DNA of 47,772 bases from Candidatus Staskawiczbacteria bacterium (GTDB taxonomy: Bacteria; Patescibacteriota; Minisyncoccia; Minisyncoccales; Staskawiczbacteraceae): assembly GCA_049513595.1 (NCBI GenBank), contig JBEKVX010000002.1:1-47772 (forward strand), given 5' to 3'. Shown one piece after another: positions 22,418 through 41,360 of the stretch. The notes under the pieces were generated by a model. It was not told the DNA's origin and did no database searches. It saw nothing but the letters and a program-made list of their open reading frames with translations. Numbering within the stretch: position 1 is the stretch's first letter; every line of letters begins with the position of its first letter. A program made the translations under genes and the position numbers.

Positions 22418-22495
22418 CTAATTACACACCCATACCAAAAAACCACCTCAATCAAAAGGCGGCTTGGTTTAATTTATTAACTTCTTCGACCTTTG

Positions 22496-24573: not shown

Positions 24574-25926
24574 TCAAACCGCAGCTCTTTCTGATTTTTT
24601 TTGACAATCGCATTCCTTTTTTATTGGAATATTTTTTATAATTTCGCTTGTCAATTTTTTTAATTTGTCTATATTTTTAGCAAAGTTTGCAAGGACTTGT
24701 TCAATTGAAACAGGGCTTATTTTTGATTTTGCGTAAATTCCGACATCGTAATCGGTAACCAAAGAGATATTTAAATAGCAAATGCCCAGCTCTAAAGCTA
24801 AAATCGCTTCCGGATACTGAGTCATGTTAACCACATCCCACCCCATTTTAGAAAACCACAAACTTTCTGCCAAAGTTGAAAATTTCGGCCCTTCAATCAC
24901 CACCACAGTCCCCTTGGCGTGCACAGGAAGTTTTAATTTTTTTGCCTGGCTGATTGCAATTTTTCTTAATTCTGGACAATAAGGATAAGCGGCTTCAATG
25001 TGATTGACTTTTGGGCCGTCGAAAAAAGTGTCTTCGCGCATTTTTGTCCTGTCAACAAACTGATCGCAAATTACAAAATCGCCCGGCTTAATTTTTGTTT
25101 TTATAGAACCCACTGAAGCCGGGGCAATTATTCTTTCAACCCCAATTTCTTTTAAAGCAGCGATGTTAGCTTTGTAATTAATTTTGTGCGGCGGAATTTT
25201 GTGGTCTCTGCCGTGCCGCGGCAAAAAAGCAACTTTTTTCCCAAAAACAGTCCCGATGGTAATTTTATCGCTCGGCAGACCAAATTTTGTTTTTATTTCA
25301 ATTTCTTTGGCATCCTTATCAAAAAACTTATAAAATCCGGAGCCGCCGATTATTCCGATTTCCGCCAGCTTTTCTGTCTCAGCGGGCTTTGAATACGTGG
25401 TATATTTTGCTAAAGACCTTATTTTATATCCTTTTATTTTTTTTCTTCCCTTCAAATAAGTTAATTCCATTAAAAAATCAATTCCGACAATTTTCCCCTT
25501 AAGTTTTTCAACCATATCTATTGTCGAGCGCATCGTTCCGCCGGTAGCTAAAACATCGTCTACTAAAATTACTTTTTCTCCGGGCAGAATTGAATCCAGG
25601 TGCATTTCAAGAACATTGCTGGCATACTCAAGAGAATAATTTTTTGAAATTGTTTTGAAGGGTAATTTTCCTTTTTTTCTGACGATAACCAATCCTGTAT
25701 TTAATTTATATGCCAGTGCAGCAGCAAAAATAAAACCCCTGGCATCAATTCCGACAATCTTGTCAATTTTTTTACCAATGTAAGGAGTAGCTAAAACATC
25801 AATTAACTCGCCGAATATTTTTTTATTTTGGAGCAAAGGAGTAATATCTTTAAAACTTACTCCTTTTTGGGGCCAGTCAGATATTTCCCTTACGTTTGAT
25901 TTAATTAATTTTTCTATATGGTCCAT
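24574..25926 (-). CDS. Fusion of adenine phosphoribosyltransferase and 5'-methylthioadenosine phosphorylase
   Basis: APRT half has the PRPP loop VILVDDVLATGGTM. MTAP half has IGIIGGSGFY, FLPRHGRDH, VNMTQYPEA and VTDYD. Start set to ATG 25926 (MDHIEKL) after AAGGAAAT; the track start is 19 aa longer. Confidence 0.85.
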   Translation of the reverse strand: MDHIEKLIKSNVREISDWPQKGVSFKDITPLLQNKKIFGELIDVLATPYIGKKIDKIVGIDARGFIFAAALAYKLNTGLVIVRKKGKLPFKTISKNYSLEYASNVLEMHLDSILPGEKVILVDDVLATGGTMRSTIDMVEKLKGKIVGIDFLMELTYLKGRKKIKGYKIRSLAKYTTYSKPAETEKLAEIGIIGGSGFYKFFDKDAKEIEIKTKFGLPSDKITIGTVFGKKVAFLPRHGRDHKIPPHKINYKANIAALKEIGVERIIAPASVGSIKTKIKPGDFVICDQFVDRTKMREDTFFDGPKVNHIEAAYPYCPELRKIAISQAKKLKLPVHAKGTVVVIEGPKFSTLAESLWFSKMGWDVVNMTQYPEAILALELGICYLNISLVTDYDVGIYAKSKISPVSIEQVLANFAKNIDKLKKLTSEIIKNIPIKKECDCQKKSERAAV

Positions 25927-26140
25927 ATATTTCCTTATTTTCCATTTTATTCTTTTAAAATAAAAATGCAACCAAAAAACCACCTCAATTAAAAGATGGC
26001 TGAAAAAAGCGCGGGTGGCGTGCCGGTTCCCGAACTTTTGAATAGAAAAAAGCCCTTCCTATTCCTGAGCTGGCGGTTAAGAAAATCAATCAATTGTTAG
26101 CTTTAATTTAGATTTACCCTACCGCGTGATTCAATATGCT

Positions 26141-26983
26141 TTATTTCTTACAATCTATAATTTGGCACATACTTGCATCGTATCTATTCACATTTCCAAC
26201 ATTGCATACCCCTTTATACGGATATGGACCAGTTATAGCGGTCGGTTCGAATGCCTTATTGCAATCGCTGCATTTGTGGTAACTGCCATTAATGACGGGG
26301 GTGGTGCAGCACCTTATTCCCCAGCAACTACTATGAAAAATGCTGTTTATAAACTGAGAATTTATAAATTCAAACCAGAAATAGTAAATATTATTGATAA
26401 ATGCAGACCAGGTAAGACCGAAATCGTTAACGGCAAAACAATTTAAAATTTGTGACCACCAAATATGGTCAAAGGTATTGAGTAGAAATCCATTCGATAA
26501 AAGTTGCAGGCACGACGACTTTTCAGTAGTATTGTTGGATGGTTTTTGTGGGACTGCTCGTTGGACAACGGTAAATTGTCCAATGCATTCTGGAGACGTT
26601 GGACCGCAAATCACACAAGGATCCGGATTACATGGACAGGTTACTGCTTTACCAGAGCAGAAACAAGTTTGTGGTCCAGTGCATTCTGGGACTGCTGGTT
26701 GGACGGGTTTAGTTTGTTCAGGGTTAGTTTGTCCAGGATGAGCTTGTGCACATTCTGGAGACGTTGGGCCGCAAACTTTACAAGGATCTGCATCACACGG
26801 ACAGTCTACAGCTTTTCCAGAGCAAAAACAGGTTTGTGTTCCGTTGCACACTCCGTTTTGAGTTGGTGGTATCCATATATCATCTTGCGCTGAAACAATT
26901 TTAATCATCACAAAGCCGAGCATTATTATTATCAAAATAAATATCCCGACATTAAAATAAAATCGCCATTTTGGTTCAAACAT
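26141..26983 (-). CDS. Membrane-anchored Cys-rich repeat protein
   Basis: TM helix followed by two copies of C.G.QTCFCSGKAV.CPC..DPC..CGPTSPEC, then a Cys/Trp-rich C-terminal domain. Confidence 0.55.
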   Translation of the reverse strand: MFEPKWRFYFNVGIFILIIIMLGFVMIKIVSAQDDIWIPPTQNGVCNGTQTCFCSGKAVDCPCDADPCKVCGPTSPECAQAHPGQTNPEQTKPVQPAVPECTGPQTCFCSGKAVTCPCNPDPCVICGPTSPECIGQFTVVQRAVPQKPSNNTTEKSSCLQLLSNGFLLNTFDHIWWSQILNCFAVNDFGLTWSAFINNIYYFWFEFINSQFINSIFHSSCWGIRCCTTPVINGSYHKCSDCNKAFEPTAITGPYPYKGVCNVGNVNRYDASMCQIIDCKK

Positions 26984-27123
26984 TTTTTTAAATTATTTAA
27001 TTATTTCATTATACCACAAAACAAAAAACCACCTAAATTAGAAGGTGGCTGAAAAAAGCGCGCCCGATGGGACGCAGTTAGAGCATGGTTCTGGGAAAAT
27101 TTTCCAGTGGAACCGATTAAAAT

Positions 27124-28185
27124 TTAAGTTTCTTTTTCTAAACTATTTAACAATCTCTCGGCCCTACTAAAAAGATGGTCAAAAGTAATGACTTCAATTC
27201 CGTGCAAGCTATCATTCAACAAGCGGAATGCAGTTTTCTCTTCAAGTGCCCAATTAATAGATCTTCCCAAAATAACCGTACACTTTGGCTTCACAGGAGT
27301 TTCACATTTATTTTCTCTGCACCAATCCGGATCCGAAAATTTTTTTTCAACCTGAAAAATATAATTTGTGGCTTGAGTGAGTGAACCCTTTAGCTCTTCG
27401 CTCGGTTGTAAAAAATCGCGGTATCTCTTATAACCTCCTATACTATCTTTTTGCCAAAAATCAATATGCGGATGTTTAATTTCTACAATATCTATAAAAC
27501 CATCTTCAGACTCAAATAGATAATCTGCCGTGTCCCATAAGTCAATCCTGCTTTCGTCCAGCAAAACGAAATATGAGAGACCAAACATCCAACGATTTTT
27601 TTCTAAAAATGGCTGCCAATAATTCCTTTCCTTTTTATCTAAATCCGACAGTGATGTTTTAAATTCGTCGAGTGCCACCCTTCTCGCTTGGACCAATTTA
27701 TAAGTAAGAATTTTTTTATCTAGCTCTGGATATTGTTCTTTAAATAATTGATAAACCGTATCTTTATTTTTTTCCGATTGCAATATTTGCTTTACTAAAT
27801 TTATTGTTACTTCATCATTCGATAATATTGCCGACGTATATTCTTTAGACAAGATATCAATGTTTAAAAGAGCCTCATTGGCTTTTATATATGCAGCTAA
27901 TTTTTCTAAAGACGCCTTATCATAAATAGCAAAACCCTCGCTTGTAACTATTTCCTCCTCAATCCAAAATGGCTCTTCTTTTATTTTTTTGAATTTCGAA
28001 AATTTTAGCGCGTAATGATGTGTTTTTTGCTCGCGTCTGTTCGGAATAAAAGTAGATTGGATTTCAACTATATAAACAACTCTCGTTCTGTCTGAAAGTT
28101 TTTCTGCATTAATAAATATCGGGTCAGGAAATCCGAAATCTTTTGCCTTTTTAACTCTTAGTTTGTAAAACTCATTAGCATCCAT
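27124..28185 (-). CDS. Shedu-type DUF4263 nuclease (SduA-like)
   Basis: WQPFLEKNRWMFGLSYFVLLDE...DYLFESEDGFIDIVEIKHP...CTVILGRS...FRLLNDSLHGIEVITFDHL matches the DUF4263 PD-(D/E)xK core (D...EIK), from memory. Confidence 0.7.
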   Translation of the reverse strand: MDANEFYKLRVKKAKDFGFPDPIFINAEKLSDRTRVVYIVEIQSTFIPNRREQKTHHYALKFSKFKKIKEEPFWIEEEIVTSEGFAIYDKASLEKLAAYIKANEALLNIDILSKEYTSAILSNDEVTINLVKQILQSEKNKDTVYQLFKEQYPELDKKILTYKLVQARRVALDEFKTSLSDLDKKERNYWQPFLEKNRWMFGLSYFVLLDESRIDLWDTADYLFESEDGFIDIVEIKHPHIDFWQKDSIGGYKRYRDFLQPSEELKGSLTQATNYIFQVEKKFSDPDWCRENKCETPVKPKCTVILGRSINWALEEKTAFRLLNDSLHGIEVITFDHLFSRAERLLNSLEKET

Positions 28186-28215
28186 AAATATTTTTGTTAA
28201 CTTACAGTATTAAAA

Positions 28216-28482
28216 TCAATAACGAGGATACCTTCTCCAATGCCCACGCACCCAATATGCTCCGCCAAGAAGCGGTATATCTCCGATTCCATCAGTCATA
28301 GCACCCACTATAATAAGAACATATAAAGCAATGACGATTATCGATAGCCATTTAATTATGTGCCAAAATTTCTCTTTTGGAGAGCGTGGATTCTGAGGCG
28401 TAGAATTTCCTTCTGCAGAATACCCTATCACTAATCCAACTACTGCAATTATTAAAGGATAAAAAATTGTATAATCATCCAT
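28216..28482 (-). CDS. Small two-TM membrane protein
   Basis: 88 aa with two hydrophobic helices. Packed 30 nt upstream of the Shedu gene. Confidence 0.45.
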   Translation of the reverse strand: MDDYTIFYPLIIAVVGLVIGYSAEGNSTPQNPRSPKEKFWHIIKWLSIIVIALYVLIIVGAMTDGIGDIPLLGGAYWVRGHWRRYPRY

Positions 28483-28493
28483 AAATTTATTTT

Positions 28494-29126
28494 TTATTTC
28501 ATTTGTGGCTTACCGGCATCGCCAAGTTTTTTGTTGAGTGCATCTCTCTTCTCTTGAATTTTTTGCTTCTGAACAAAATAAAAATCGAATAAACTTTCTA
28601 AAATATCTAAATTCCATTCTGCTTCTCCTGGCTCTACATCGACTATTTCTCCAGTACTTTTGCTCTTTATTGGATGAGCAGCAAAATTGCCTATATTCCG
28701 AACCGCATCTAAGTTTTCCGAAAGATATGGGGGTAAAGAATTTGAATTTAAAACTTCTTCAATTTGTTCAGATAAATCTTTTTTTGTAGTATTAGCTTTT
28801 TCCTTAAGTAAATTTTGTAAGCACCTTCTACTTAATGCGGCGCTAGCTTTTGGGCTGTCAGAAAAAACTAAACACGCCTCCCTGTAATCTTCAGTAAAAG
28901 CGGGCGGTATATCTGAAGGTAACGGTGTTCTTGAAATTCCTTTTGGCCTTACTAGCTCAGGGCTCCAAACACGATATCCGGTTGGAAGCTTGCCCAACTC
29001 AATTATAACTTTTTTGCAACTCGGACAAGTGCAATAACGCAAGCGAAAATTTCCCTCAATATCTGTAAGGGTTGTAATGTGCGCCCAATCCTCAAAAAAA
29101 TTTTCTAAACAATGTGGACATTTCAT
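28494..29126 (-). CDS. Zinc-ribbon plus DUF4145 protein
   Basis: CPHC...CPSC ribbon at the N-terminus. DUF4145-like AALSRRCLQNLL...LDAVRNIGNFAAHP. Confidence 0.65.
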   Translation of the reverse strand: MKCPHCLENFFEDWAHITTLTDIEGNFRLRYCTCPSCKKVIIELGKLPTGYRVWSPELVRPKGISRTPLPSDIPPAFTEDYREACLVFSDSPKASAALSRRCLQNLLKEKANTTKKDLSEQIEEVLNSNSLPPYLSENLDAVRNIGNFAAHPIKSKSTGEIVDVEPGEAEWNLDILESLFDFYFVQKQKIQEKRDALNKKLGDAGKPQMK

Positions 29127-29134
29127 AATTTTTA

Positions 29135-29758
29135 TTAAAACTTAATTGATGTAGCAATATTTTTTATATCTTTTAAAACTGTACTACTCGGATTCCATGG
29201 AAGATATGTACTAAGTATTAAAATTGCTTTCTCTCCATTTGTATTCATCATATATACAAAATCATAGGTTCTCATACTAGATTTTTTTATAAATCCCTTT
29301 ATGCAAATAGCGAAGCCAGAATTATTCTCAAAAATTTCGAACCCACCATCCTTCTCCCAACCAGCACCCCTAATGCCTTTGTGAAAAAATAATAACATGT
29401 CTGAAAGTGCCGATGTTACAATTTTTTTCGGTTCTTCTATGGCGACTATATTTTTATATTCAGATTTTTTTATTTCACCCTCAAGATTCCATAAAACATC
29501 CCCGTTTTCTAAAAACATTGGAAAATCTTTAATTTTAAAAATCTGTACCATACCAGCAGGACTATATTGGCTTGAGCTGTCTTCCGCAGAAAAAGACATA
29601 TCGCAATATTTATTTGCCATGAAGTTAATCAATGGACTTGTATACCAATCCATATCAGTATTTTCAAAAGAAATTACATATGGATATTTCTTACCCTTAT
29701 ATTGAAGTTTGTTTAGCTTCTTATTAAATCTTCTTTGAATAAAATTTAGTTTTGCCAT
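29135..29758 (-). CDS. Hypothetical protein (first gene of the Shedu cassette)
   Basis: 207-aa ORF with no motif I recognise. Its stop is 8 nt from the next start. Confidence 0.5.
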   Translation of the reverse strand: MAKLNFIQRRFNKKLNKLQYKGKKYPYVISFENTDMDWYTSPLINFMANKYCDMSFSAEDSSSQYSPAGMVQIFKIKDFPMFLENGDVLWNLEGEIKKSEYKNIVAIEEPKKIVTSALSDMLLFFHKGIRGAGWEKDGGFEIFENNSGFAICIKGFIKKSSMRTYDFVYMMNTNGEKAILILSTYLPWNPSSTVLKDIKNIATSIKF

Positions 29759-29919
29759 ATTTTTAAAAAATTAATATTTAACGCAAAAACGCCCAAAAAT
29801 TGGGCGGTGGAATTTGAACTAAAAATAGTCGGGGAAGTGCCGAGAAGTGTCATAACTTCTGGTCGCACATGCGTTATTTACAATAACTTACGACTAAAAG
29901 TTCTAACATGTGCATCAGG

Positions 29920-29995
29920 CGCGGGCAGGGGGATTTGAACCCCCGATCTCCTCCGTGACAGGGAGGCGTCTTAAACCAGGCTGGACTATGCCCGC
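29920..29995 (-). tRNA. tRNA-Asp (anticodon GTC)
   Basis: Acceptor GCGGGCA/TGCCCGC, anticodon arm CCTCC-CTGTCAC-GGAGG, T arm GGGGG-TTCAAAT-CCCCC, discriminator G. Confidence 0.85.
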
Positions 29996-30011
29996 AAAAT
30001 TATTTTCGGGG

Positions 30012-30085
30012 TGCCGGGGGAGAGAATCGGACTCTCGACCTCTGCGTTATGAGTGCAGCGCTCTTACCAACTGAGCTACCCCGGC
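30012..30085 (-). tRNA. tRNA with anticodon CAT (elongator Met or lysidine-Ile2)
   Basis: Acceptor GCCGGGG/CCCCGGC, anticodon loop CTCATAA, T arm GAGAG-TCCGATT-CTCTC, discriminator A. Confidence 0.8.
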
Positions 30086-30099
30086 GTTAAAATTTAAAA

Positions 30100-30173
30100 T
30101 GGTTGCGCCGCCCCGAATTGCACGGGGGCCTGCAGCTTATGAGACTGCCGAGGTACTACTCCTCCACGGCGCG
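30100..30173 (-). tRNA. tRNA with anticodon CAT, initiator-like (C1-A72 mismatch), CCA encoded
   Basis: Acceptor CGCGCCG/CGGCGCA (position 1-72 unpaired C/A), anticodon loop CTCATAA, T arm CCCCG-TGCAATT-CGGGG, 3' ACCA present. It lacks the three G-C pairs typical of initiator anticodon stems. Confidence 0.7.
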
Positions 30174-30232
30174 ATGGTCATTACTTAATAGATTAAGTAA
30201 TATAAATACTTTAACACAAAAAATCAATCAAA

Positions 30233-32020
30233 TCAAGCTCTGAAAACTTCCAAGAATGCTTTTGTGGGAACATTGACTCTTCCTTTTTGTTTCATCAGTT
30301 TTTTTCCTTTTTTTTGTTTTTCCAAAAGTTTGTTTTTTCTGGTCACGTCGCCGCCATACAAATATCCTGTCACATCTTTTCTTCTTGACCTAATTGTTTC
30401 ACGAGCAATAACTTTTCCGCCGATAATCGCCTGCAATGCAACAGAAAATTGCTCTGGAGGCAAAACATCTTTTAATTTTTCTACTAATTTTTTTCCTTCT
30501 CCGTACGCCTCGTCTTCAGCCACAATTCTTGAAAACGCTTCTTCTTTTTGTCCGGCAATTAAAAGTTCCATTTTTACCAATTTTGCCGGCCTAAATCCCA
30601 GCATTTTATAATTCATTGAAGCATATCCCTGGCTGGCTGTTTTTATTTTGTCATACAAATTTGCAATAATTCCTCGCAAAGGTGTTTCAAAAACAATAAT
30701 CGCTCTTTCCGGACTTAAATAATTTGTTTGGACATAATTTCCTTTGAGCATTTTTAAAATTTCCATTAATTTTCCCATATAAGAAACAGGACTGATAACT
30801 TCCAAAGAAACCCACGGCTCTTCGCAATTTTTAATTCTTGATTGGTCTGGCCAATCGCTTGCCGAATGGATTAAAATTTCTTTATTTTTGTTATCAAAAA
30901 TTTTATAAACAACTGACGGCGTTGAAATTACCAAATTCAAACCAAATTCCCTTTGCAAGCGTTCGGAAATAATTTCAATATGCAAAGTTCCCAAAAATCC
31001 GCAGTTAAATCCCCTGCCCAGCGCCTCTTTCATTTCCTGCTCAAAAACCAAAGCCGGGTCATTTAATTTTAATTTTCCCAAAGCCACTTTCAACACATCA
31101 AAGTCGTCTGGATTTTCAGGATACAAGCTGGCAAAAACCATTGGTTTTGGTTCTTGATATCCAGGTAAGGCCTCTGCATTTGAATTTAATTTAATAATCG
31201 TATCTCCGGCATGAACTTTTCCCGGTTCTTTAATCCCAGTTGCAATATATCCAATGTCTCCGGCTTTAATTTTTTGTTGCGCTGAAAATCCGGGATTTAA
31301 ATATCCCAATTCTTTTACTTCGGCAGGAGTATTTGTTGCCATCAATTCAATTTTTTCTCCGTTTGAAATTTCGCCGTCAACAACGCGCACAAACGCAATC
31401 ACGCCCTTGAAAGAATCATACTCCGAATCAAAAATTAATGCGCGAAAATTGTTGTCCGTGCTTTCACGCGGCGCTGGCACATTTTTGATTATTTTTTCCA
31501 AAACCTGCTGCACGTTCGTTCCGTCTTTTGCAGAAATTTTTATAATTTCTTCGGGCATCACATTCAACAAATTTGAAAGTTCTTCAACCGTCTCGTCAAT
31601 TTTAGCTATTGGACTATCAATTTTATTTACAACCGGAATAATTTTTAAATTTTGAGATTTTGCCAATTCCAAATTCGCCAATGTCTGCGCCTGAATTCCC
31701 TGAGTTGCATCAACCAAAAGCACAGCTCCCTCAACTGCTTCCAAACTTCTTGAAACTTCATAAGAAAAATCAACATGGCCCGGCGTGTCAACCAAATTCA
31801 AAATGTAATCGGTGCCCTCAAAATTATAATTCATTCTGATGGCTTTTAATTTTATGGTAATTCCCTTTTCTCTTTCTAAATCCATTGAATCCAAAAACTG
31901 CGGCATCATCTTCTTTGGGTCAATTGTTCCGGTCAACTCAAGCAACCTATCGGCTAAAGTCGATTTCCCATGGTCTATGTGAGCAATTATTGAAAAATTT
32001 CTAATATTTTCCTGGCTCAT
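30233..32020 (-). CDS. lepA: Translation elongation factor 4
   Basis: NFSIIAHIDHGKSTLADRLL, DTPGHVDF, NKID, and the full-length LepA C-terminal domain pattern. Confidence 0.95.
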   Translation of the reverse strand: MSQENIRNFSIIAHIDHGKSTLADRLLELTGTIDPKKMMPQFLDSMDLEREKGITIKLKAIRMNYNFEGTDYILNLVDTPGHVDFSYEVSRSLEAVEGAVLLVDATQGIQAQTLANLELAKSQNLKIIPVVNKIDSPIAKIDETVEELSNLLNVMPEEIIKISAKDGTNVQQVLEKIIKNVPAPRESTDNNFRALIFDSEYDSFKGVIAFVRVVDGEISNGEKIELMATNTPAEVKELGYLNPGFSAQQKIKAGDIGYIATGIKEPGKVHAGDTIIKLNSNAEALPGYQEPKPMVFASLYPENPDDFDVLKVALGKLKLNDPALVFEQEMKEALGRGFNCGFLGTLHIEIISERLQREFGLNLVISTPSVVYKIFDNKNKEILIHSASDWPDQSRIKNCEEPWVSLEVISPVSYMGKLMEILKMLKGNYVQTNYLSPERAIIVFETPLRGIIANLYDKIKTASQGYASMNYKMLGFRPAKLVKMELLIAGQKEEAFSRIVAEDEAYGEGKKLVEKLKDVLPPEQFSVALQAIIGGKVIARETIRSRRKDVTGYLYGGDVTRKNKLLEKQKKGKKLMKQKGRVNVPTKAFLEVFRA

Positions 32021-33837: not shown

Positions 33838-35199
33838 TTATTTCTCAATTAATTTTTCAACTTTTTGTTTCGCTTCATCTAATAACTCCTTTGCTTTTTT
33901 TCGGGCAATATGAGATTTCCTTACCAACTCAGAAATTTTTTGCTGAATATTATTTTCTAATTTGGGTAAAATAATTCTCCTTAAAGAAGAACTTGGTATC
34001 GCAGTTAAAATTGTACCTTGCGCTTCTCTCATTAATAATGATTTTATAATCAAAGATTTTACTAAAATTAAATTCACTTCTGGTTTAAAATATTTTTCTT
34101 TCAATATAAAAAATCCCGTCGAACCAACTAAATCTTTCACATCCTCATCTATTAAGGCGACTTTATCGGTTGAACCCTCAACAGAGGAAACAATCACATC
34201 ATTTTTTTGTAATTTCATTCTTGCTCTGCTCGGCAATTCTTTCCCTTTTATTGTTTGAATGTTATCAACCATTCCCAAATTTTCATTCACATCTGCCAAT
34301 TCAATATATTTATATTCTTTTTCCGGATTGATTTCAATTTTTTTATTCGATACTTCAATTAAATTGTCGAAACTATCAAAACCGTTTCTGTAATTTCTAA
34401 TTTTTGAAACTAATTTTTCATATTTTGATTGAAAATATTCCGCATCCATTCTGTTCGCATTTTTCAAATCGGATAAATTTGCAACACTAAACAGGCCTTC
34501 CTTGTTTTCAAAATCTTTCAATCCTAATTCTTCCAAAAGCAAACTTTCTGCTTGAGAATATAACGACTCGCTTTGTTCTCTAAATTTTATTATCTGTTCA
34601 TATAAATCTAGAAAATAAACTTGGTCTTTTTTCGTAATTAATGGTATTTCAATGTTCTCGATGTCAACCACATTTAATTTCAATTGTATGTTACCGCTTG
34701 CTTTTTGGAAAATTTGAGATTGTCCATATTTACTCAAAAGAAAAAATAATAAATAAACCTTTTCTTCTTGTGATAATTTTTTAAATCTAATACCTATGTT
34801 ATTTTCACTTATATTTACTTCTCCTAGATCATCCGAAATAACTGAAAGTCTGCCTACCGTCGCAATTTTTGAAAGCACAATATCTCCTGGCATTAAGTGG
34901 GTAGAAAAAATTCTTTTATGTTCTTCCGGAGAAATATAAACTAAACTATTTTTATTTATAAAAATATCCGAGATATCCCCTATTCTAATAAAAGGAATCC
35001 CCTCGGTTCTATACGATTCACTTTTTAATGTAGAACCGAAGGGGCCACTAAAAACTTTCTCTGCAAAATCTTTTAACGGCTTTGATTTTTGAGATTTAAT
35101 CTTCAATACCGAATTTAAATATTCCGGCTGATAATATTCAGCATCAAGCCGCAAAGCTCCTTCCAATTGAGATTTTTTAATTATTGAATAGGTAATCAT
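33838..35199 (-). CDS. hsdS: Type I restriction-modification specificity subunit
   Basis: Two TRD halves separated by conserved helical spacers (LDAEYYQP... / MDAEYFQSKYEKL...). ATG at 35199 preferred over the TTG at 35220, which would overlap the upstream gene. Confidence 0.85.
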   Translation of the reverse strand: MITYSIIKKSQLEGALRLDAEYYQPEYLNSVLKIKSQKSKPLKDFAEKVFSGPFGSTLKSESYRTEGIPFIRIGDISDIFINKNSLVYISPEEHKRIFSTHLMPGDIVLSKIATVGRLSVISDDLGEVNISENNIGIRFKKLSQEEKVYLLFFLLSKYGQSQIFQKASGNIQLKLNVVDIENIEIPLITKKDQVYFLDLYEQIIKFREQSESLYSQAESLLLEELGLKDFENKEGLFSVANLSDLKNANRMDAEYFQSKYEKLVSKIRNYRNGFDSFDNLIEVSNKKIEINPEKEYKYIELADVNENLGMVDNIQTIKGKELPSRARMKLQKNDVIVSSVEGSTDKVALIDEDVKDLVGSTGFFILKEKYFKPEVNLILVKSLIIKSLLMREAQGTILTAIPSSSLRRIILPKLENNIQQKISELVRKSHIARKKAKELLDEAKQKVEKLIEK

Positions 35200-35200
35200 T

Positions 35201-35821
35201 TTAATGTATATTTTCGTCAATTTTAATCAATCCAGCCTTCATTAATGTTTTTACGGTCTCACTTATAATTCTGTACATACTTAAAATATTTTGTCTTGCC
35301 TTATCGATTGTGTCTATCGGTTCTCCATCAAAATGAGCAGGAGTGTGCCGATAATAATGTAAAAACCTCTTCATTTCATTGACCATGTCTTTTATGTGCA
35401 TTTTTTCTTCGTTATCTAATGTTTTTGACTCTTTGGTTTTATTTCCAAGTTCTTTCAGTAAATTATCTATCGTTTCGTCTACCTTTTCTTCGTCAAAATA
35501 AGTTCCAACAAATTTAGGATTACCAGACGACGGTAGATTCAAATCTTTCGCTATTTGAAATAAAAATCCTTCGAAAGCCTTATAAGCAGGCGCTGTGAAA
35601 AAAGAAAAATCGTTGAATCTTTCCTTAAATTGTTCTTTCCATAAAATATCCAAATTTAATGAGTCTGCCAAGTGATTAATTACTCTTTCACTCAGATAGT
35701 GTAGGACAGCCATATCAAAATGATTGATTAAATCTCTTGTCGGTTGTTGTTTCCTCGCACTCCCTATGATTTGCGGGTAACTAGTACGTAAATTATATAT
35801 ATTTTCAAAATATTTACTCAT
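35201..35821 (-). CDS. Hypothetical protein with an Rx4H (HEPN-like) motif
   Basis: 206 aa, predicted helical. Motif YYRHTPAHF near the C-terminus. Sits between the protease and hsdS with gaps of 5 nt and 1 nt. Confidence 0.45.
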   Translation of the reverse strand: MSKYFENIYNLRTSYPQIIGSARKQQPTRDLINHFDMAVLHYLSERVINHLADSLNLDILWKEQFKERFNDFSFFTAPAYKAFEGFLFQIAKDLNLPSSGNPKFVGTYFDEEKVDETIDNLLKELGNKTKESKTLDNEEKMHIKDMVNEMKRFLHYYRHTPAHFDGEPIDTIDKARQNILSMYRIISETVKTLMKAGLIKIDENIH

Positions 35822-35826
35822 CTTTT

Positions 35827-36558
35827 TTATTTAACTTGATCAAATGAACTAATCAAAAAATCCTTCGCAATATTAATTGGTTGAGCAAATCCAATGTTTG
35901 TAAATATTTCAACTGGTTCTCCATCAATTATTAATCTTGGCGGTCTGCCCTTCATAAATGGGTCAAATCTACCCTTAATAATCGCTATTACATCGTTAGA
36001 GCCAGGGATAAAAACGGGTGCTCCACTATTTCCACTTGCTGTAACTGCGTCTAATTGTACTAATTCAACCGGACCCCCAATACGATTTTTTCTAAAGGCG
36101 CTTATAATACCCCTTGTTGCCGATGGCCTAATATCGCCACTTAATACGGTACCAAAAGGAAAGCCAACAAATGCAATATCTTGACCTTCTTGCAAATCGG
36201 AAGAATCTCCTAGTTTTATTTCTGATAAATTTTCTAAAATCGGGTTAATTTTTTCAATAATTATCTTAATTACTGCTAAATCTTTTTCAAAATCTACTGA
36301 AATAATTTTTCCAGGAAAACCCATCGGACCGTTTTCAGACATTATACCAATTTGTAACTGTGCGTCATTTCTGATCACGCCATTTTTAGATATTACATGA
36401 GCACACGTTGCAATCAATAAATTTTCTTTTGAGTATAAAAAGCCTGTGCCAACAATTGAGAGTTTATATGAGTTAGTAAAAATATCATGTTCGTTAAAGG
36501 CTATTGGAACGACAGACGGCTTAATTATTTTTATTGCATCTATTAGTATGTTTTGCAT
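35827..36558 (-). CDS. Cytoplasmic trypsin-like (S1) serine protease
   Basis: Triad contexts TCAHVI (His), DLAVIKI (Asp), GNSGAPVF (Ser). No signal peptide or PDZ domain. Confidence 0.8.
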   Translation of the reverse strand: MQNILIDAIKIIKPSVVPIAFNEHDIFTNSYKLSIVGTGFLYSKENLLIATCAHVISKNGVIRNDAQLQIGIMSENGPMGFPGKIISVDFEKDLAVIKIIIEKINPILENLSEIKLGDSSDLQEGQDIAFVGFPFGTVLSGDIRPSATRGIISAFRKNRIGGPVELVQLDAVTASGNSGAPVFIPGSNDVIAIIKGRFDPFMKGRPPRLIIDGEPVEIFTNIGFAQPINIAKDFLISSFDQVK

Positions 36559-36580
36559 AATTTTAAAAATTAGTTATTTA

Positions 36581-38524
36581 TTAAAAATTAAATTTTTGTT
36601 TTTTGGCGAAGTCGAAAAATGCTTCGGCGATTTCGTCTAAATCGTGGTCTAAAATTTTTCTGCCTTTTTGGTCGTGGATGTAGTTTCCGTTTGCATCTTT
36701 TTTATAAATGTAATCGCCGGAGTTGTCTTTGCCGGCTTTTTTGGAGACCGCCATAAAAATTGGATAATCTTTTAACAATTCGCCGGATTTGCCTCCCCAT
36801 TTTTGCAAAAATAAAACAGATGTTTTTGTTCCGGTGTGCGGTTTAAAAGTATTTCCGTGCAAGCCCACAACTGCCAAAATTCGCGCTTTATCAAAAAGAT
36901 ATTCTCTTACATATTCCATGCCGGTATTATTTAAGACACCTTGAGGTAAAACAATTGCCATTCTTCCGCCCGGCTTTATCATGTCTAGCGTTCTTTCTAT
37001 AAATAAAATATGGCGTTCAATTTTGTTAACCAATTTTCCTTTTTTTCTGCCAAACTCATATTGCCTTAATAATCCTTGGTCTTTTATTTCTCCTGCAAAT
37101 GGCGGGTTTGTCAGCAGAACGTCAAATCCAAAATTTTTAAAACTTTTTTTATTTTCTTCTTCCTCGGCGTAGTCCTTAAATTTTTCGAGCCGTTGTAAAA
37201 GTTCACTTCTTGCATGTAATTTATCTTTATCTTCGCCTTGCCATTCTCTTGTGTCTAAAGAATTTAATTTAAATAAATGCGACCTGCCGTCACCGGCAAT
37301 TAACATCAGCGCCCTTGAAACCTTGGCGGTTTCATCGGCAAAATCAATTCCATAAAGATATTCTTTTGCGTAGTCCTGTTTTTCTAATTCCGACTTCAAA
37401 TATTTTTCTTTTACATAATTCATACAAGCAATTAGAAATCCGCCCGAACCGCAGGCAGGGTCAATAACATATTCGTCTTTTTTTGGATTTAACATTTTTA
37501 CGGCCATTGCAATTGCATGCCTTGGCGTAAAATATTGCCCTTTTTTGCCTTTTGCAACTTCAGGAATTAAATATTCAAACGCTTCGTCAATAACCATCAA
37601 ATCCGAACCAAAAAGTTTTGTCTTTTCCATTTCTCCAATCACAATTGCCAAATGCTCTGGGGAAAGACGAATATTATCCTGCTCAAAAAAAGTTCCAGGC
37701 CATTTTTTAACTGCCGAATGAAACAAATTATTTATGGCAGAAAAAGTTTTATTTGGGTCTTTATATTTTCTGAATAAAATCTCTTCGCCGTCCCTTTTTT
37801 GCGCCTCTATTTCATCAAATAATTTTGCATATATCAATTTAAAAATTTCTGTGAAAACATCCACTCCGGCGTTTGCCAAAACCAATTCTTCAATAATTTT
37901 AATACTTTCTTTCAAGTCGGTTTTTGGGTCTAAATCGTCTAACGTTTTCTTTTCAGATAATAAGTCATCAATTGTTTTGCTTGCCGAAGGAATTTCCGAA
38001 AGAGTGTCTTCAAAATTATTAGGATAATTTCTATACAAAATTGTTTTTACTTCGCCGTTTGACCAAACGCCAATTTCGCAGCCCTCGGCGTTTAGATAAC
38101 TTTTTAGTTGGTCAATTCCTTTTTCAAAGTTTGGTTTTTTAACTTCAATAATAATGTATGGAGTTATTTTGTCATTTTTATAAACAACGATGTCGGCTCT
38201 GGCAAATTCCTTTGAGCCAAAATGAACGCTTTTTTCTGTGTCAATTAAATCAAAAGGATAACCATAAAATTTGTTTAATTTATAAAGCCAAAGCTGTCTT
38301 ACAATTTCCTCTGGTTTTCCGCTTTGTTTTGATTCGTCAAAAACAAACCTCTTACTGCCGGATTTTAAATCTTTCAGATAAAATCTGTCTTTTTCTTCTT
38401 CGGTTATTGTTAAAATATTTTCAATGTCAAAATCCTTAAATTCTTTTAAGCTGTAAATAGTTTCTGAATCATGGAAAATTTTATTAATTATTTCCTTTGT
38501 CTTGTTAATTTTTTGCGTTGGCAT
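36581..38524 (-). CDS. hsdM: Type I R-M N6-adenine methyltransferase with an HSDR_N-like PD-(D/E)xK N-terminal domain
   Basis: VIDPACGSGGFL (AdoMet site), LLTNPPFAG (NPPF). The N-terminal about 190 aa includes RADIVVY...YIIIEVKKP. Confidence 0.9.
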   Translation of the reverse strand: MPTQKINKTKEIINKIFHDSETIYSLKEFKDFDIENILTITEEEKDRFYLKDLKSGSKRFVFDESKQSGKPEEIVRQLWLYKLNKFYGYPFDLIDTEKSVHFGSKEFARADIVVYKNDKITPYIIIEVKKPNFEKGIDQLKSYLNAEGCEIGVWSNGEVKTILYRNYPNNFEDTLSEIPSASKTIDDLLSEKKTLDDLDPKTDLKESIKIIEELVLANAGVDVFTEIFKLIYAKLFDEIEAQKRDGEEILFRKYKDPNKTFSAINNLFHSAVKKWPGTFFEQDNIRLSPEHLAIVIGEMEKTKLFGSDLMVIDEAFEYLIPEVAKGKKGQYFTPRHAIAMAVKMLNPKKDEYVIDPACGSGGFLIACMNYVKEKYLKSELEKQDYAKEYLYGIDFADETAKVSRALMLIAGDGRSHLFKLNSLDTREWQGEDKDKLHARSELLQRLEKFKDYAEEEENKKSFKNFGFDVLLTNPPFAGEIKDQGLLRQYEFGRKKGKLVNKIERHILFIERTLDMIKPGGRMAIVLPQGVLNNTGMEYVREYLFDKARILAVVGLHGNTFKPHTGTKTSVLFLQKWGGKSGELLKDYPIFMAVSKKAGKDNSGDYIYKKDANGNYIHDQKGRKILDHDLDEIAEAFFDFAKKQKFNF

Positions 38525-38537
38525 AAATTTATTTTTT

Positions 38538-39173
38538 TTAATTTATTGATCGCCATGTTCCCTTTTTAAAAACTGAAATTACTTTACCAATAATTTCCAT
38601 ATTATCTCTAAAAGGGATGTTTTTGTACTTCGGATTTTCTGATTTTAAATAAACGTATGGCGGCTTATCTTCTGAAACAAATCTTTTAACCGTTCTGTCT
38701 CCAGCAACATCGGCTAAAACAATATCTCCTGAAACAAACTCTTTTTGATTTTGAATTAAAACCGCATCACCGTCTTCAATGTTGGCGTTAATCATAGAGT
38801 CGCCAATAATTTTTATTAAAAACACATCCTCCTTGAGTTGGGCCACATCTGTTGAAACTTCCTGCCATTCTCCAGAAATTTCTAACGCATCTATTGGCGA
38901 CCCGGCGCTCGCCGAACCCAGCATGGGAATTAAAGGGTTTCTTTTTAAAATTTTATTGCCAAGCGGCAAAATGGTTAAACTTCTTGCAGACGCCTCGTTT
39001 TTTTTCAAAAGTTTTTGTTCTTCTAATTTTTTTAGAAGATCAATAATTGATTGATTCGAAACTACGCCTAAACTTTCCCGCATTTCTTCAAATGTTGGAG
39101 GATAGCCCGTGTCTTTAATATAATTGTAAATAATCTCTAATAATTGTTTTTGTCTTTTTGTAATTTTTTCCAT
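38538..39173 (-). CDS. lexA: LexA-type repressor (winged-helix plus S24 peptidase)
   Basis: KRQKQLLEIIYNYIKDTGYPPTFEEM... DNA-binding domain. GDSM (Ser) and VKRF (Lys) dyad. Start set at ATG 39173 (MEKITKRQ); the longer track ORF overlaps the promoter. Confidence 0.8.
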   Translation of the reverse strand: MEKITKRQKQLLEIIYNYIKDTGYPPTFEEMRESLGVVSNQSIIDLLKKLEEQKLLKKNEASARSLTILPLGNKILKRNPLIPMLGSASAGSPIDALEISGEWQEVSTDVAQLKEDVFLIKIIGDSMINANIEDGDAVLIQNQKEFVSGDIVLADVAGDRTVKRFVSEDKPPYVYLKSENPKYKNIPFRDNMEIIGKVISVFKKGTWRSIN

Positions 39174-39179
39174 TAAATC

Positions 39180-39209
39180 ATTATAACTGACTAAAAGGTC
39201 GGGTGTCAA
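39180..39209 (-). promoter_or_regulatory. Consensus sigma-70 promoter giving a leaderless lexA mRNA
   Basis: Minus strand: TTGACA (39204-39209), an 18-nt spacer, TATAAT (39180-39185), then 6 nt to the ATG at 39173. Confidence 0.65.
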
Positions 39210-41003: not shown

Positions 41004-41008
41004 GTTGT

Positions 41009-41360
41009 CTCAGCAAGACTATAAGCCGAATTCTGTATTATGTGATCATCTGTCTGTTCGCGACATTGCTGTCGGAATCAAGCGAACTACTTTTAACAGA
41101 ATTTCGAGATGTATTTAACCCAATTTTCTGCTTTGTTCTTGCACCCAATAAGGATTTAGCCGTTTCATTTTTACATTGCTGTAAAACTATTCCGCGAAGG
41201 AATGCCAGATCTTTCGATCTGAGCCGTTTCTGTTCGCACCTCGCATCTTACGATGGACGGCCGTTAGCCGCTATTTTTTTACCCTGAACCTTGCGGTCGG
41301 GTGGTGTTCGGACTTTCCTCCCCAAACTTGCGTTTGAAGCGATCACTCATCTTGCTGAAA
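41009..41360 (-). ncRNA. rnpB: RNase P RNA (bacterial type)
   Basis: Minus strand has P4 strands GGGGAGGAAAGUCCGAAC and ACAGAAUUCGGCUUAUAG. P1 pairs UCAGCAAGA (5') with UCUUGCUGA (3'). About 352 nt; the overlapping + ORF 41042-41287 is spurious. Confidence 0.85.

Follow-up and report, generated by a model that had tools for sequence, protein, structure and literature searches.

This report concerns a block of four genes, A to D, on the minus strand of a 47,772-nt stretch of DNA from Candidatus Staskawiczbacteria bacterium (contig JBEKVX010000002.1; the whole stretch is called the window). The block spans positions 27124-29758 and lies between a tRNA cluster and housekeeping genes. We interpret it, with a probability of roughly 0.8, as a small defence island in which independently mobile single-gene modules, an RNase of the RAZR type (gene B) and a Shedu nuclease (gene D), sit in one probably co-transcribed unit. 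Genes A and C would be further accessory cargo; judged by comparison with related loci, neither B nor D appears to require them. Both kinds of defence gene are known, and the novel elements are the family of A and the peptide C alone.

Gene D encodes a Shedu nuclease

The 353-aa product of gene D (27124..28185, minus strand) is a genuine Shedu nuclease. The preliminary description of this DNA, which was made from the sequence alone, had named it a DUF4263/SduA protein, and the hidden Markov model bears this out well above threshold: SduA_C (PF14082, DUF4263) matches residues 185-338 with 65.4 bits (9e-18) against a gathering score of 27. The PADLOC model SduA (PDLC00385) matches at full length (1.1e-51, model positions 19-315 of 319). 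D carries the motif DGFIDIVEIKHP, and its PD-(D/E)xK core (nt 27172-27633) contains D221, E235 (27481-27483), K237 (27475-27477) and Q271. Among 30 D homologues (alignment A1), D221, E235 and Q271 never vary, and K237 is present in at least 90%.

Sequence searches of the PDB matched D to 8ti8, 8ti9 and 8ps4, the EIK triplet of D being aligned with IEIK of B. cereus SduA. The AF2 model of D has a pLDDT of 71.6 overall and of 80-94 in the nuclease part. Its best Foldseek match is 8ti9_A (B. cereus Shedu; E=3.9e-10, TMt 0.74), followed by 8ti8 and 8ps4. The N-terminal region (residues ~1-107) is predicted to consist of a helix, three strands and a long helix, and a helical linker comes next. In the published scheme for Shedu proteins (bioRxiv 10.1101/2023.08.10.552793) stand-alone type 1 proteins have an N-terminal domain of their own; since D has its own ~107-residue N-terminal region and a helical linker, we assign it to type 1.

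D thus resembles the B. cereus type 1A Shedu (8ti8/8ti9) and E. coli SduA (8ps4) in its C-terminal DUF4263 core with D, ExK and Q, and likewise places an N-terminal regulatory domain and a helical linker before this core; the predicted fold matches that of 8ti9 (E=4e-10), and the relatives of D, like Shedu, behave as a single gene. It differs from the solved Shedu proteins in its low sequence similarity to them (E ~1e-4), in an N-terminal domain (~1-107) that is modelled at moderate confidence and is not classified, and in belonging to a 353-aa subfamily that is unusually conserved (63-88% identity) across metagenome-assembled genomes (MAGs) labelled as very different phyla.

The relatives of sduA occur without A, B and C

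About 98 relatives of D are 59-88% identical to it, and nearly all of them are ~353 aa long. With the alignment of D homologues, 68 sduA loci were fetched from genome and metagenome collections, and ~55 of them have a ~353-aa relative that is 63-88% identical to D; the taxon labels of these loci are those of binned MAGs and should be read with caution. In 43 loci a close sduA (63-88% identity) is preceded by at least 400 nt of DNA, so that its upstream side can be read. None of these 43 loci carries A, B or C (0/43), and the same count holds for an upstream small gene with two transmembrane (TM) segments that could be a non-homologous analogue of C (0/43). By tblastn, A, B and C are absent from 66 Shedu loci with the lone exception of a DUF4145 gene, 26% identical, which lies 5 kb from a distant Shedu (locus L021). 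All four genes occur together only in contigs of the same strain that are 100% identical. DNA similarity between the window and the loci of sduA relatives is confined to the sduA open reading frame (ORF; 28187..27124).

What usually lies upstream of sduA relatives are restriction-modification (RM) genes of type I or type III. Among them are hsdR-hsdM-hsdS, which overlaps sduA by 4 nt, type III mod-res and a fused M+S gene; other N6 methylases and a combination of EcoRI-methylase and GmrSD are also seen. In at least six loci (among L005-L060) the overlap of sduA with the hsdS stop codon is 4 nt long (ATGA), as though the gene had been added to the end of a type I RM operon. Members of the 353-aa subfamily that are 74-88% identical come from MAGs labelled Woesearchaeota, Gammaproteobacteria, Endomicrobiaceae, Planctomycetia, Saccharibacteria, Roizmanbacteria and Falkowbacteria; here, too, the homology is limited to the ORF.

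On this comparative evidence D appears to be autonomous, as no conserved partner is found among the loci of its relatives. The subfamily seems to pass from one lineage to another, even very different ones, as a lone ORF, and often stands at the 3' end of type I or type III RM operons.

Gene B belongs to the RAZR family

The preliminary description had identified a zinc ribbon and a DUF4145 domain in the 210-aa product of gene B (28494..29126, minus strand). Both are confirmed, and the protein can be named beyond these domains: it is a member of the RAZR family, formerly PD-T7-4. Pfam DUF4145 (PF13643) matches residues 83-176 (nt 28599-28880; E=1.6e-18, 67 bits versus a threshold of 23.1), the PADLOC model PD-T7-4 (PDLC04109) matches residues 2-153 (1.4e-20), and phrog_1305 matches at full length (9.6e-34). 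The solved RAZR chain 9y9c is also matched (E=3e-7), with R143-x7-H151 of B aligned with the R and H of 9y9c_OA.

The Cys4 zinc ribbon has the form CxxC...CxxC and consists of C3, C6, C34 and C37 (nt ~29016-29120), and the catalytic pair R-x7-H of R143 (28698-28700) and H151 (28674-28676). In an alignment of 26 B homologues (alignment A3) C6, C34, C37, R143 and H151 are invariant, whereas C3 is found in at least 90%. One public (NCBI) model of B uses a TTG at codon 44 as its start; the resulting 167-aa protein lacks the Cys4 zinc ribbon. More than 100 full-length homologues back the 210-aa model.

PD-T7-4 was renamed RAZR (ring-activated zinc-finger RNase) when it was characterized (Nature 2026, PMC13017515). 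It is a single-gene abortive-infection system, and E. coli is protected by the lone gene when this is expressed from the native promoter (PMC13017515). Ring-shaped phage proteins, portals among them, are bound by its Cys4 zinc-ribbon sensor, and its RNase is the DUF4145 domain, a divergent HEPN domain whose catalytic residues are R146 and H154 in RAZR-Ec (PMC13017515). In the E. coli protein, activation by a ring protein is followed by higher-order oligomerization, cleavage of single-stranded RNA and abortive infection (PMC13017515). B shares the two-domain architecture of RAZR (9y9c), with Cys4 zinc ribbon, linker and DUF4145/HEPN domain in this order, and a similar size (210 aa versus 219 aa in the solved chain); its R-x7-H aligns with R146/H154. 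Its similarity to E. coli RAZR is moderate: phmmer aligns residues 67-154, and the PADLOC model residues 2-153. What the preliminary description did not recognize is that B is itself a described single-gene defence system.

The family of B comprises more than 7,900 proteins. Four contexts, unrelated to one another, were seen for its close relatives (69-89% identity); in one of these the relative comes right behind a HinfI RM pair. A, C (or a C-like gene) and sduA are absent from all four (0/4). Reports of DUF4145 genes in operons with RM systems exist (PMC3710099). The distribution of its close relatives indicates that B, too, is probably autonomous.

Arrangement and transcription of the block

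Gene A (29135..29758) is followed by B, by C (28216..28482) and by D. The preliminary description of the order, the common strand and the gaps of 8 nt (A-B), 11 nt (B-C) and 30 nt (C-D) is reproduced by the ORF coordinates, and 2,586 of the 2,635 nt of the block are coding. In the window 42% of all same-strand gaps are 30 nt or shorter. At this frequency a run of three such gaps is mildly unusual (~0.07), which suggests an operon; yet because short gaps are normal here, the packing alone tells little about function and is no proof of functional coupling.

Consensus scans on the coding strand place a terminator-like hairpin, CGCCCAATTTTTGGGCG followed by a T run, at 29806-29790 between tRNA-Asp and gene A, and two more in tandem (27076-27059 and 27050-27027) directly 3' of sduA; none lies within the four genes. 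The total of terminator-like sites equals the chance expectation, and the hairpins count as positional evidence only. A scan for promoters was uninformative, with as many promoter-like sites as in shuffled sequences. As hairpins flank the four genes and none is internal, a single transcription unit bounded by these hairpins is plausible, and the four genes are probably co-transcribed.

Genes A and C

The 207-aa product of gene A has no match in Pfam, PADLOC, NCBIfam or PHROGs. A word-indexed search of 5.8 billion proteins returned one relative, 73% identical, and an exhaustive phmmer search of 1.84 billion representatives added seven further small relatives (25-47% identity, 191-218 aa), so that eight credible relatives are known in total. 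One further candidate, the 2,963-aa protein P0225, was rejected; it is a cadherin/VCBS-like repeat adhesin whose score was summed over 17 repeats. The family shares the motif SFE-x-T-x-x-x-WY (alignment A2). Homologues of A were not found in phages, plasmids or IMG/VR.

Neither a signal peptide nor a TM segment was detected in A. Its AF2 model shows an alpha/beta fold (pLDDT 79, pTM 0.79). Foldseek matches to this model are weak (TM 0.4-0.58, E ~1e-3 to 1e-4) and include PsbP, Mog1, DcrB, LpqN, Tsi3, Eag-type proteins and phage lipoproteins. A is predicted to be a rare cytoplasmic alpha/beta protein of an uncharacterized family. The 73%-identical relative lies between genes of unknown function and an S49 peptidase, with an RM pair and an integrase within a few kb. 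Two other loci have a serine recombinase within ~5 kb, and relatives of A also occur near methylases and helix-turn-helix (HTH) genes. DUF4145 and sduA are absent from the neighbourhoods of the other A-family members (0/6 contexts).

Gene C encodes an orphan membrane peptide of 88 aa. The two TM segments given in the preliminary description are confirmed: by hydropathy, they span residues 5-23 and 42-64, and they are followed by a basic C-terminal tail. C is probably a real gene, since a frame of at least 88 codons arose in only 5 of 2,000 shuffles of the B-D interval. It has no family match in Pfam, PADLOC, NCBIfam or PHROGs; tblastn against the 86 other fetched loci returned nothing at E<=1, and searches of phages, plasmids and IMG/VR yielded no relatives. 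At 90% identity C forms a cluster with a single member.

Alternative explanations

Several observations weigh against an island of independent modules. The four contexts of close B relatives are a small sample from a very large family. The co-directional genes, the 8-30 nt gaps and the lack of an internal terminator leave room for some functional cross-talk. Genes of the A family have recurrent kinds of neighbour, namely proteins with the HEPN-type motif RNSIVH in L080 and L084 and small membrane proteins in L080, L083, L086 and L088, and the order in the window (A, HEPN, TM) mirrors that in L080 (A, TM, RNSIVH). Finally, no close genome that lacks the block was found by exact-protein look-ups, so that insertion as an island is an inference.

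The alternative that survives best joins A, B and C in one three-gene HEPN-based system stacked on Shedu, in which A would be a partner of the RNase and C its membrane component. It draws on the neighbours of A. In three of seven independent A-family contexts, the window included, A lies beside or one gene from a protein with an HEPN-type motif: the DUF4145 protein of the window (gap 8 nt), a 209-aa protein with FRNSIVH in L084 (1014-1643) and a 235-aa protein with RRNSIVH in L080-82 (6587-7593 in L080). The last two share RNSIVH (Rx4H) and are otherwise dissimilar. In L080 an 87-aa protein with a C-terminal TM helix stands between A and the 235-aa protein; it has a weak match to SLATT_5 (E=6e-4) that is far below the cut-off. 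Small membrane proteins are found in most A contexts, adjoining A in five of the seven and lying one gene off in the window. Two contexts begin with an XRE-type HTH gene, which is directly upstream of A in L084 and one small TM gene farther upstream in L088. The fold class of A, although the match is weak, takes in protein-binding adaptors and immunity proteins (Tsi3, Eag chaperones).

Against such a system, RAZR is sufficient alone in experiment (PMC13017515), relatives of B with 69-89% identity occur without A and C, and the closest relative of A (73%) has no HEPN neighbour. The HEPN status of the RNSIVH proteins comes from the motif and one sub-threshold Pfam match (HEPN_RiboL-PSP, E=0.019), which was obtained for one of them and not for the other. 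Both proteins drew a blank in NCBIfam, PHROGs, PADLOC and a PDB sequence search, and hhalign gave no match between these proteins and the DUF4145 profile. Because such genomes commonly encode small TM proteins, adjacency to them is weak evidence, and C is without a homologue in all searches. We therefore consider a three-gene system unlikely. With the same reserve, the A family might partner HEPN-type RNases, as a regulator, antitoxin or sensor-adaptor, together with a small membrane protein; this would be something of an outside chance. Were it so, the trios A-RAZR-2-TM of the window and A-TM-RNSIVH of L080-82 would be permuted forms of one new three-part abortive-infection or toxin-antitoxin module, and a RAZR-type RNase could be recruited into a multi-gene system.

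It is harder still to credit that there is no cassette at all, just two inserted defence genes with ordinary host genes or mis-called ORFs, A and C, beside them. A and C are indeed without matches in defence libraries, and tight spacing is normal at the gap frequency of the window (42% at 30 nt or less). But with eight credible relatives in 1.84 billion A is far too scarce and too unevenly distributed to be a host core gene, and its kin lie near serine recombinases, methylases and HTH genes, while the frame of C is improbable by chance (5/2,000 shuffles). On the main point, the independence of the genes, this explanation overlaps with the island that we favour.

The preliminary description had proposed that all four genes might form a multi-component Shedu, A, B and C being sensors or regulators of SduA, and had looked to their co-occurrence in other genomes as the test; tight packing on one strand and the two-gene precedent KELShedu (PMC12577705) speak for it, but it fails that test at every gene examined (sduA 0/43, B 0/4 and A 0/6 contexts), homology stops at the ORF borders, D retains an N-terminal domain as stand-alone type 1 proteins do, B is a complete and separately characterized system and C is a membrane peptide unlike KELA, so that we regard it as highly improbable. 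In KELShedu a 12.6-kDa dsDNA (double-stranded DNA) binder, KELA, is encoded 3 bp from the DUF4263 protein KELB (PMC12577705). The present block is similar in that its DUF4263 gene, too, is immediately preceded by a small gene of the same orientation. However, KELA is a soluble dsDNA-binding protein of ~110 aa, 3 bp from KELB and needed for KELB folding, whereas C is a 2-TM peptide encoded 30 nt upstream; C is also absent from all 43 close-sduA loci, where a conserved small DNA-binding partner is likewise not seen. Because KELA is a soluble DNA binder and D's relatives have no analogue beside them, the precedent does not apply. The second proposal of the preliminary description, a separate new system stacked on Shedu, is right about the stacking and wrong about the newness, since the stacked system is the known RAZR/PD-T7-4. 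For annotation, this averts a false multi-component Shedu call and gives the DUF4145 gene its name as a member of the RAZR family.

Proposed action of the two modules

Taking the block as an island of independent modules, a mode of action for each can be proposed by analogy with the published homologues. The zinc ribbon of B would sense a ring-shaped phage assembly such as the portal. B would then oligomerize around the ring, which would switch on the HEPN RNase (R143/H151). Cleavage of single-stranded RNA (tRNA, rRNA and mRNA) would stop translation and lead to abortive infection. D may assemble as a homotetramer whose PD-(D/E)xK core (D221/E235/K237) is kept inactive by the N-terminal domain; a phage-derived nucleic-acid cue would free the core, and DNA would be cut. 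RAZR- and Shedu-type immunity is apparently present in streamlined, uncultured bacteria.

Island status and surroundings

A horizontal origin of B and D is suggested by their close relatives in MAGs labelled as very different phyla and by the restriction of shared sequence to the ORF. The position beside tRNA genes, which had been called a classic island position, stands as far as the adjacency goes: gene A starts 159 nt past the 3' end of tRNA-Asp, as located by ARAGORN and Rfam. The further marks of an island are missing, as no integrase was found among the scanned ORFs of the window and no transposase at the block, and no tRNA-derived (att-like) repeat in 25900-30300. The GC content of the block (0.33-0.36) is not distinct from that of its flanks. 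Exact-protein look-ups with sduA and with the downstream 450-aa gene returned only contigs of the same strain, all with the block present. The block is like other defence islands and RM-linked cargo in its stacking of unrelated defence genes, and close sduA relatives lie at the 3' end of type I/III RM operons; it differs in having no integrase, transposase or att repeat and in its size of just 2.6 kb.

On the upstream side ARAGORN predicts, all on the minus strand, tRNA-Asp (29918-29995; Rfam tRNA 29920-29995) and two tRNA-Met genes (30010-30085, Rfam tRNA 30012-30085; and 30100-30173). Upstream of the tRNAs is lepA (30233-32020), identified by Pfam domains on a same-strain contig. A class A bacterial RNase P RNA at 41006-41358 (minus strand; Rfam, 121.6 bits) marks the contig as bacterial chromosomal DNA.

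Defence genes are plentiful in the wider neighbourhood. On the far side of lepA, ~4-5.7 kb off, there is a second defence-type cluster (33838-38524, minus strand), where the GC content falls to 0.29-0.32. It contains hsdM (647 aa; PADLOC MTase_I, 6e-181) and hsdS (460 aa; Specificity_I, 2e-39), and two genes are inserted between these; one encodes a 243-aa Trypsin_2 protease, the other a 206-aa protein that weakly matches the RnlA-toxin DBD. An hsdR gene was not seen at this cluster, which LexA adjoins (38538-39209).

Downstream of the block, a 44-nt direct repeat (91% identical; 25970-26013 and 27019-27062) comprises a terminator hairpin and its flank. One copy, which includes the second of the two tandem hairpins, comes right after sduA, and the other follows the gene next in line; what the repeat brackets is this gene of 280 aa and not the cassette; a third copy, of the hairpin alone, lies 3.5 kb farther (22438-22462). 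The repeat may represent a family of host terminators, or it may have been left behind when the neighbouring gene was inserted. That 280-aa gene (26141-26983, minus strand) encodes a protein with an N-terminal hydrophobic segment and no match in Pfam, PADLOC, NCBIfam or PHROGs; it has two internal repeats of 98 nt (82% identical, 165 nt apart) that encode the Cys-rich sequence CFCSGKAVxCPCxxDPCxxCGPTSPEC.

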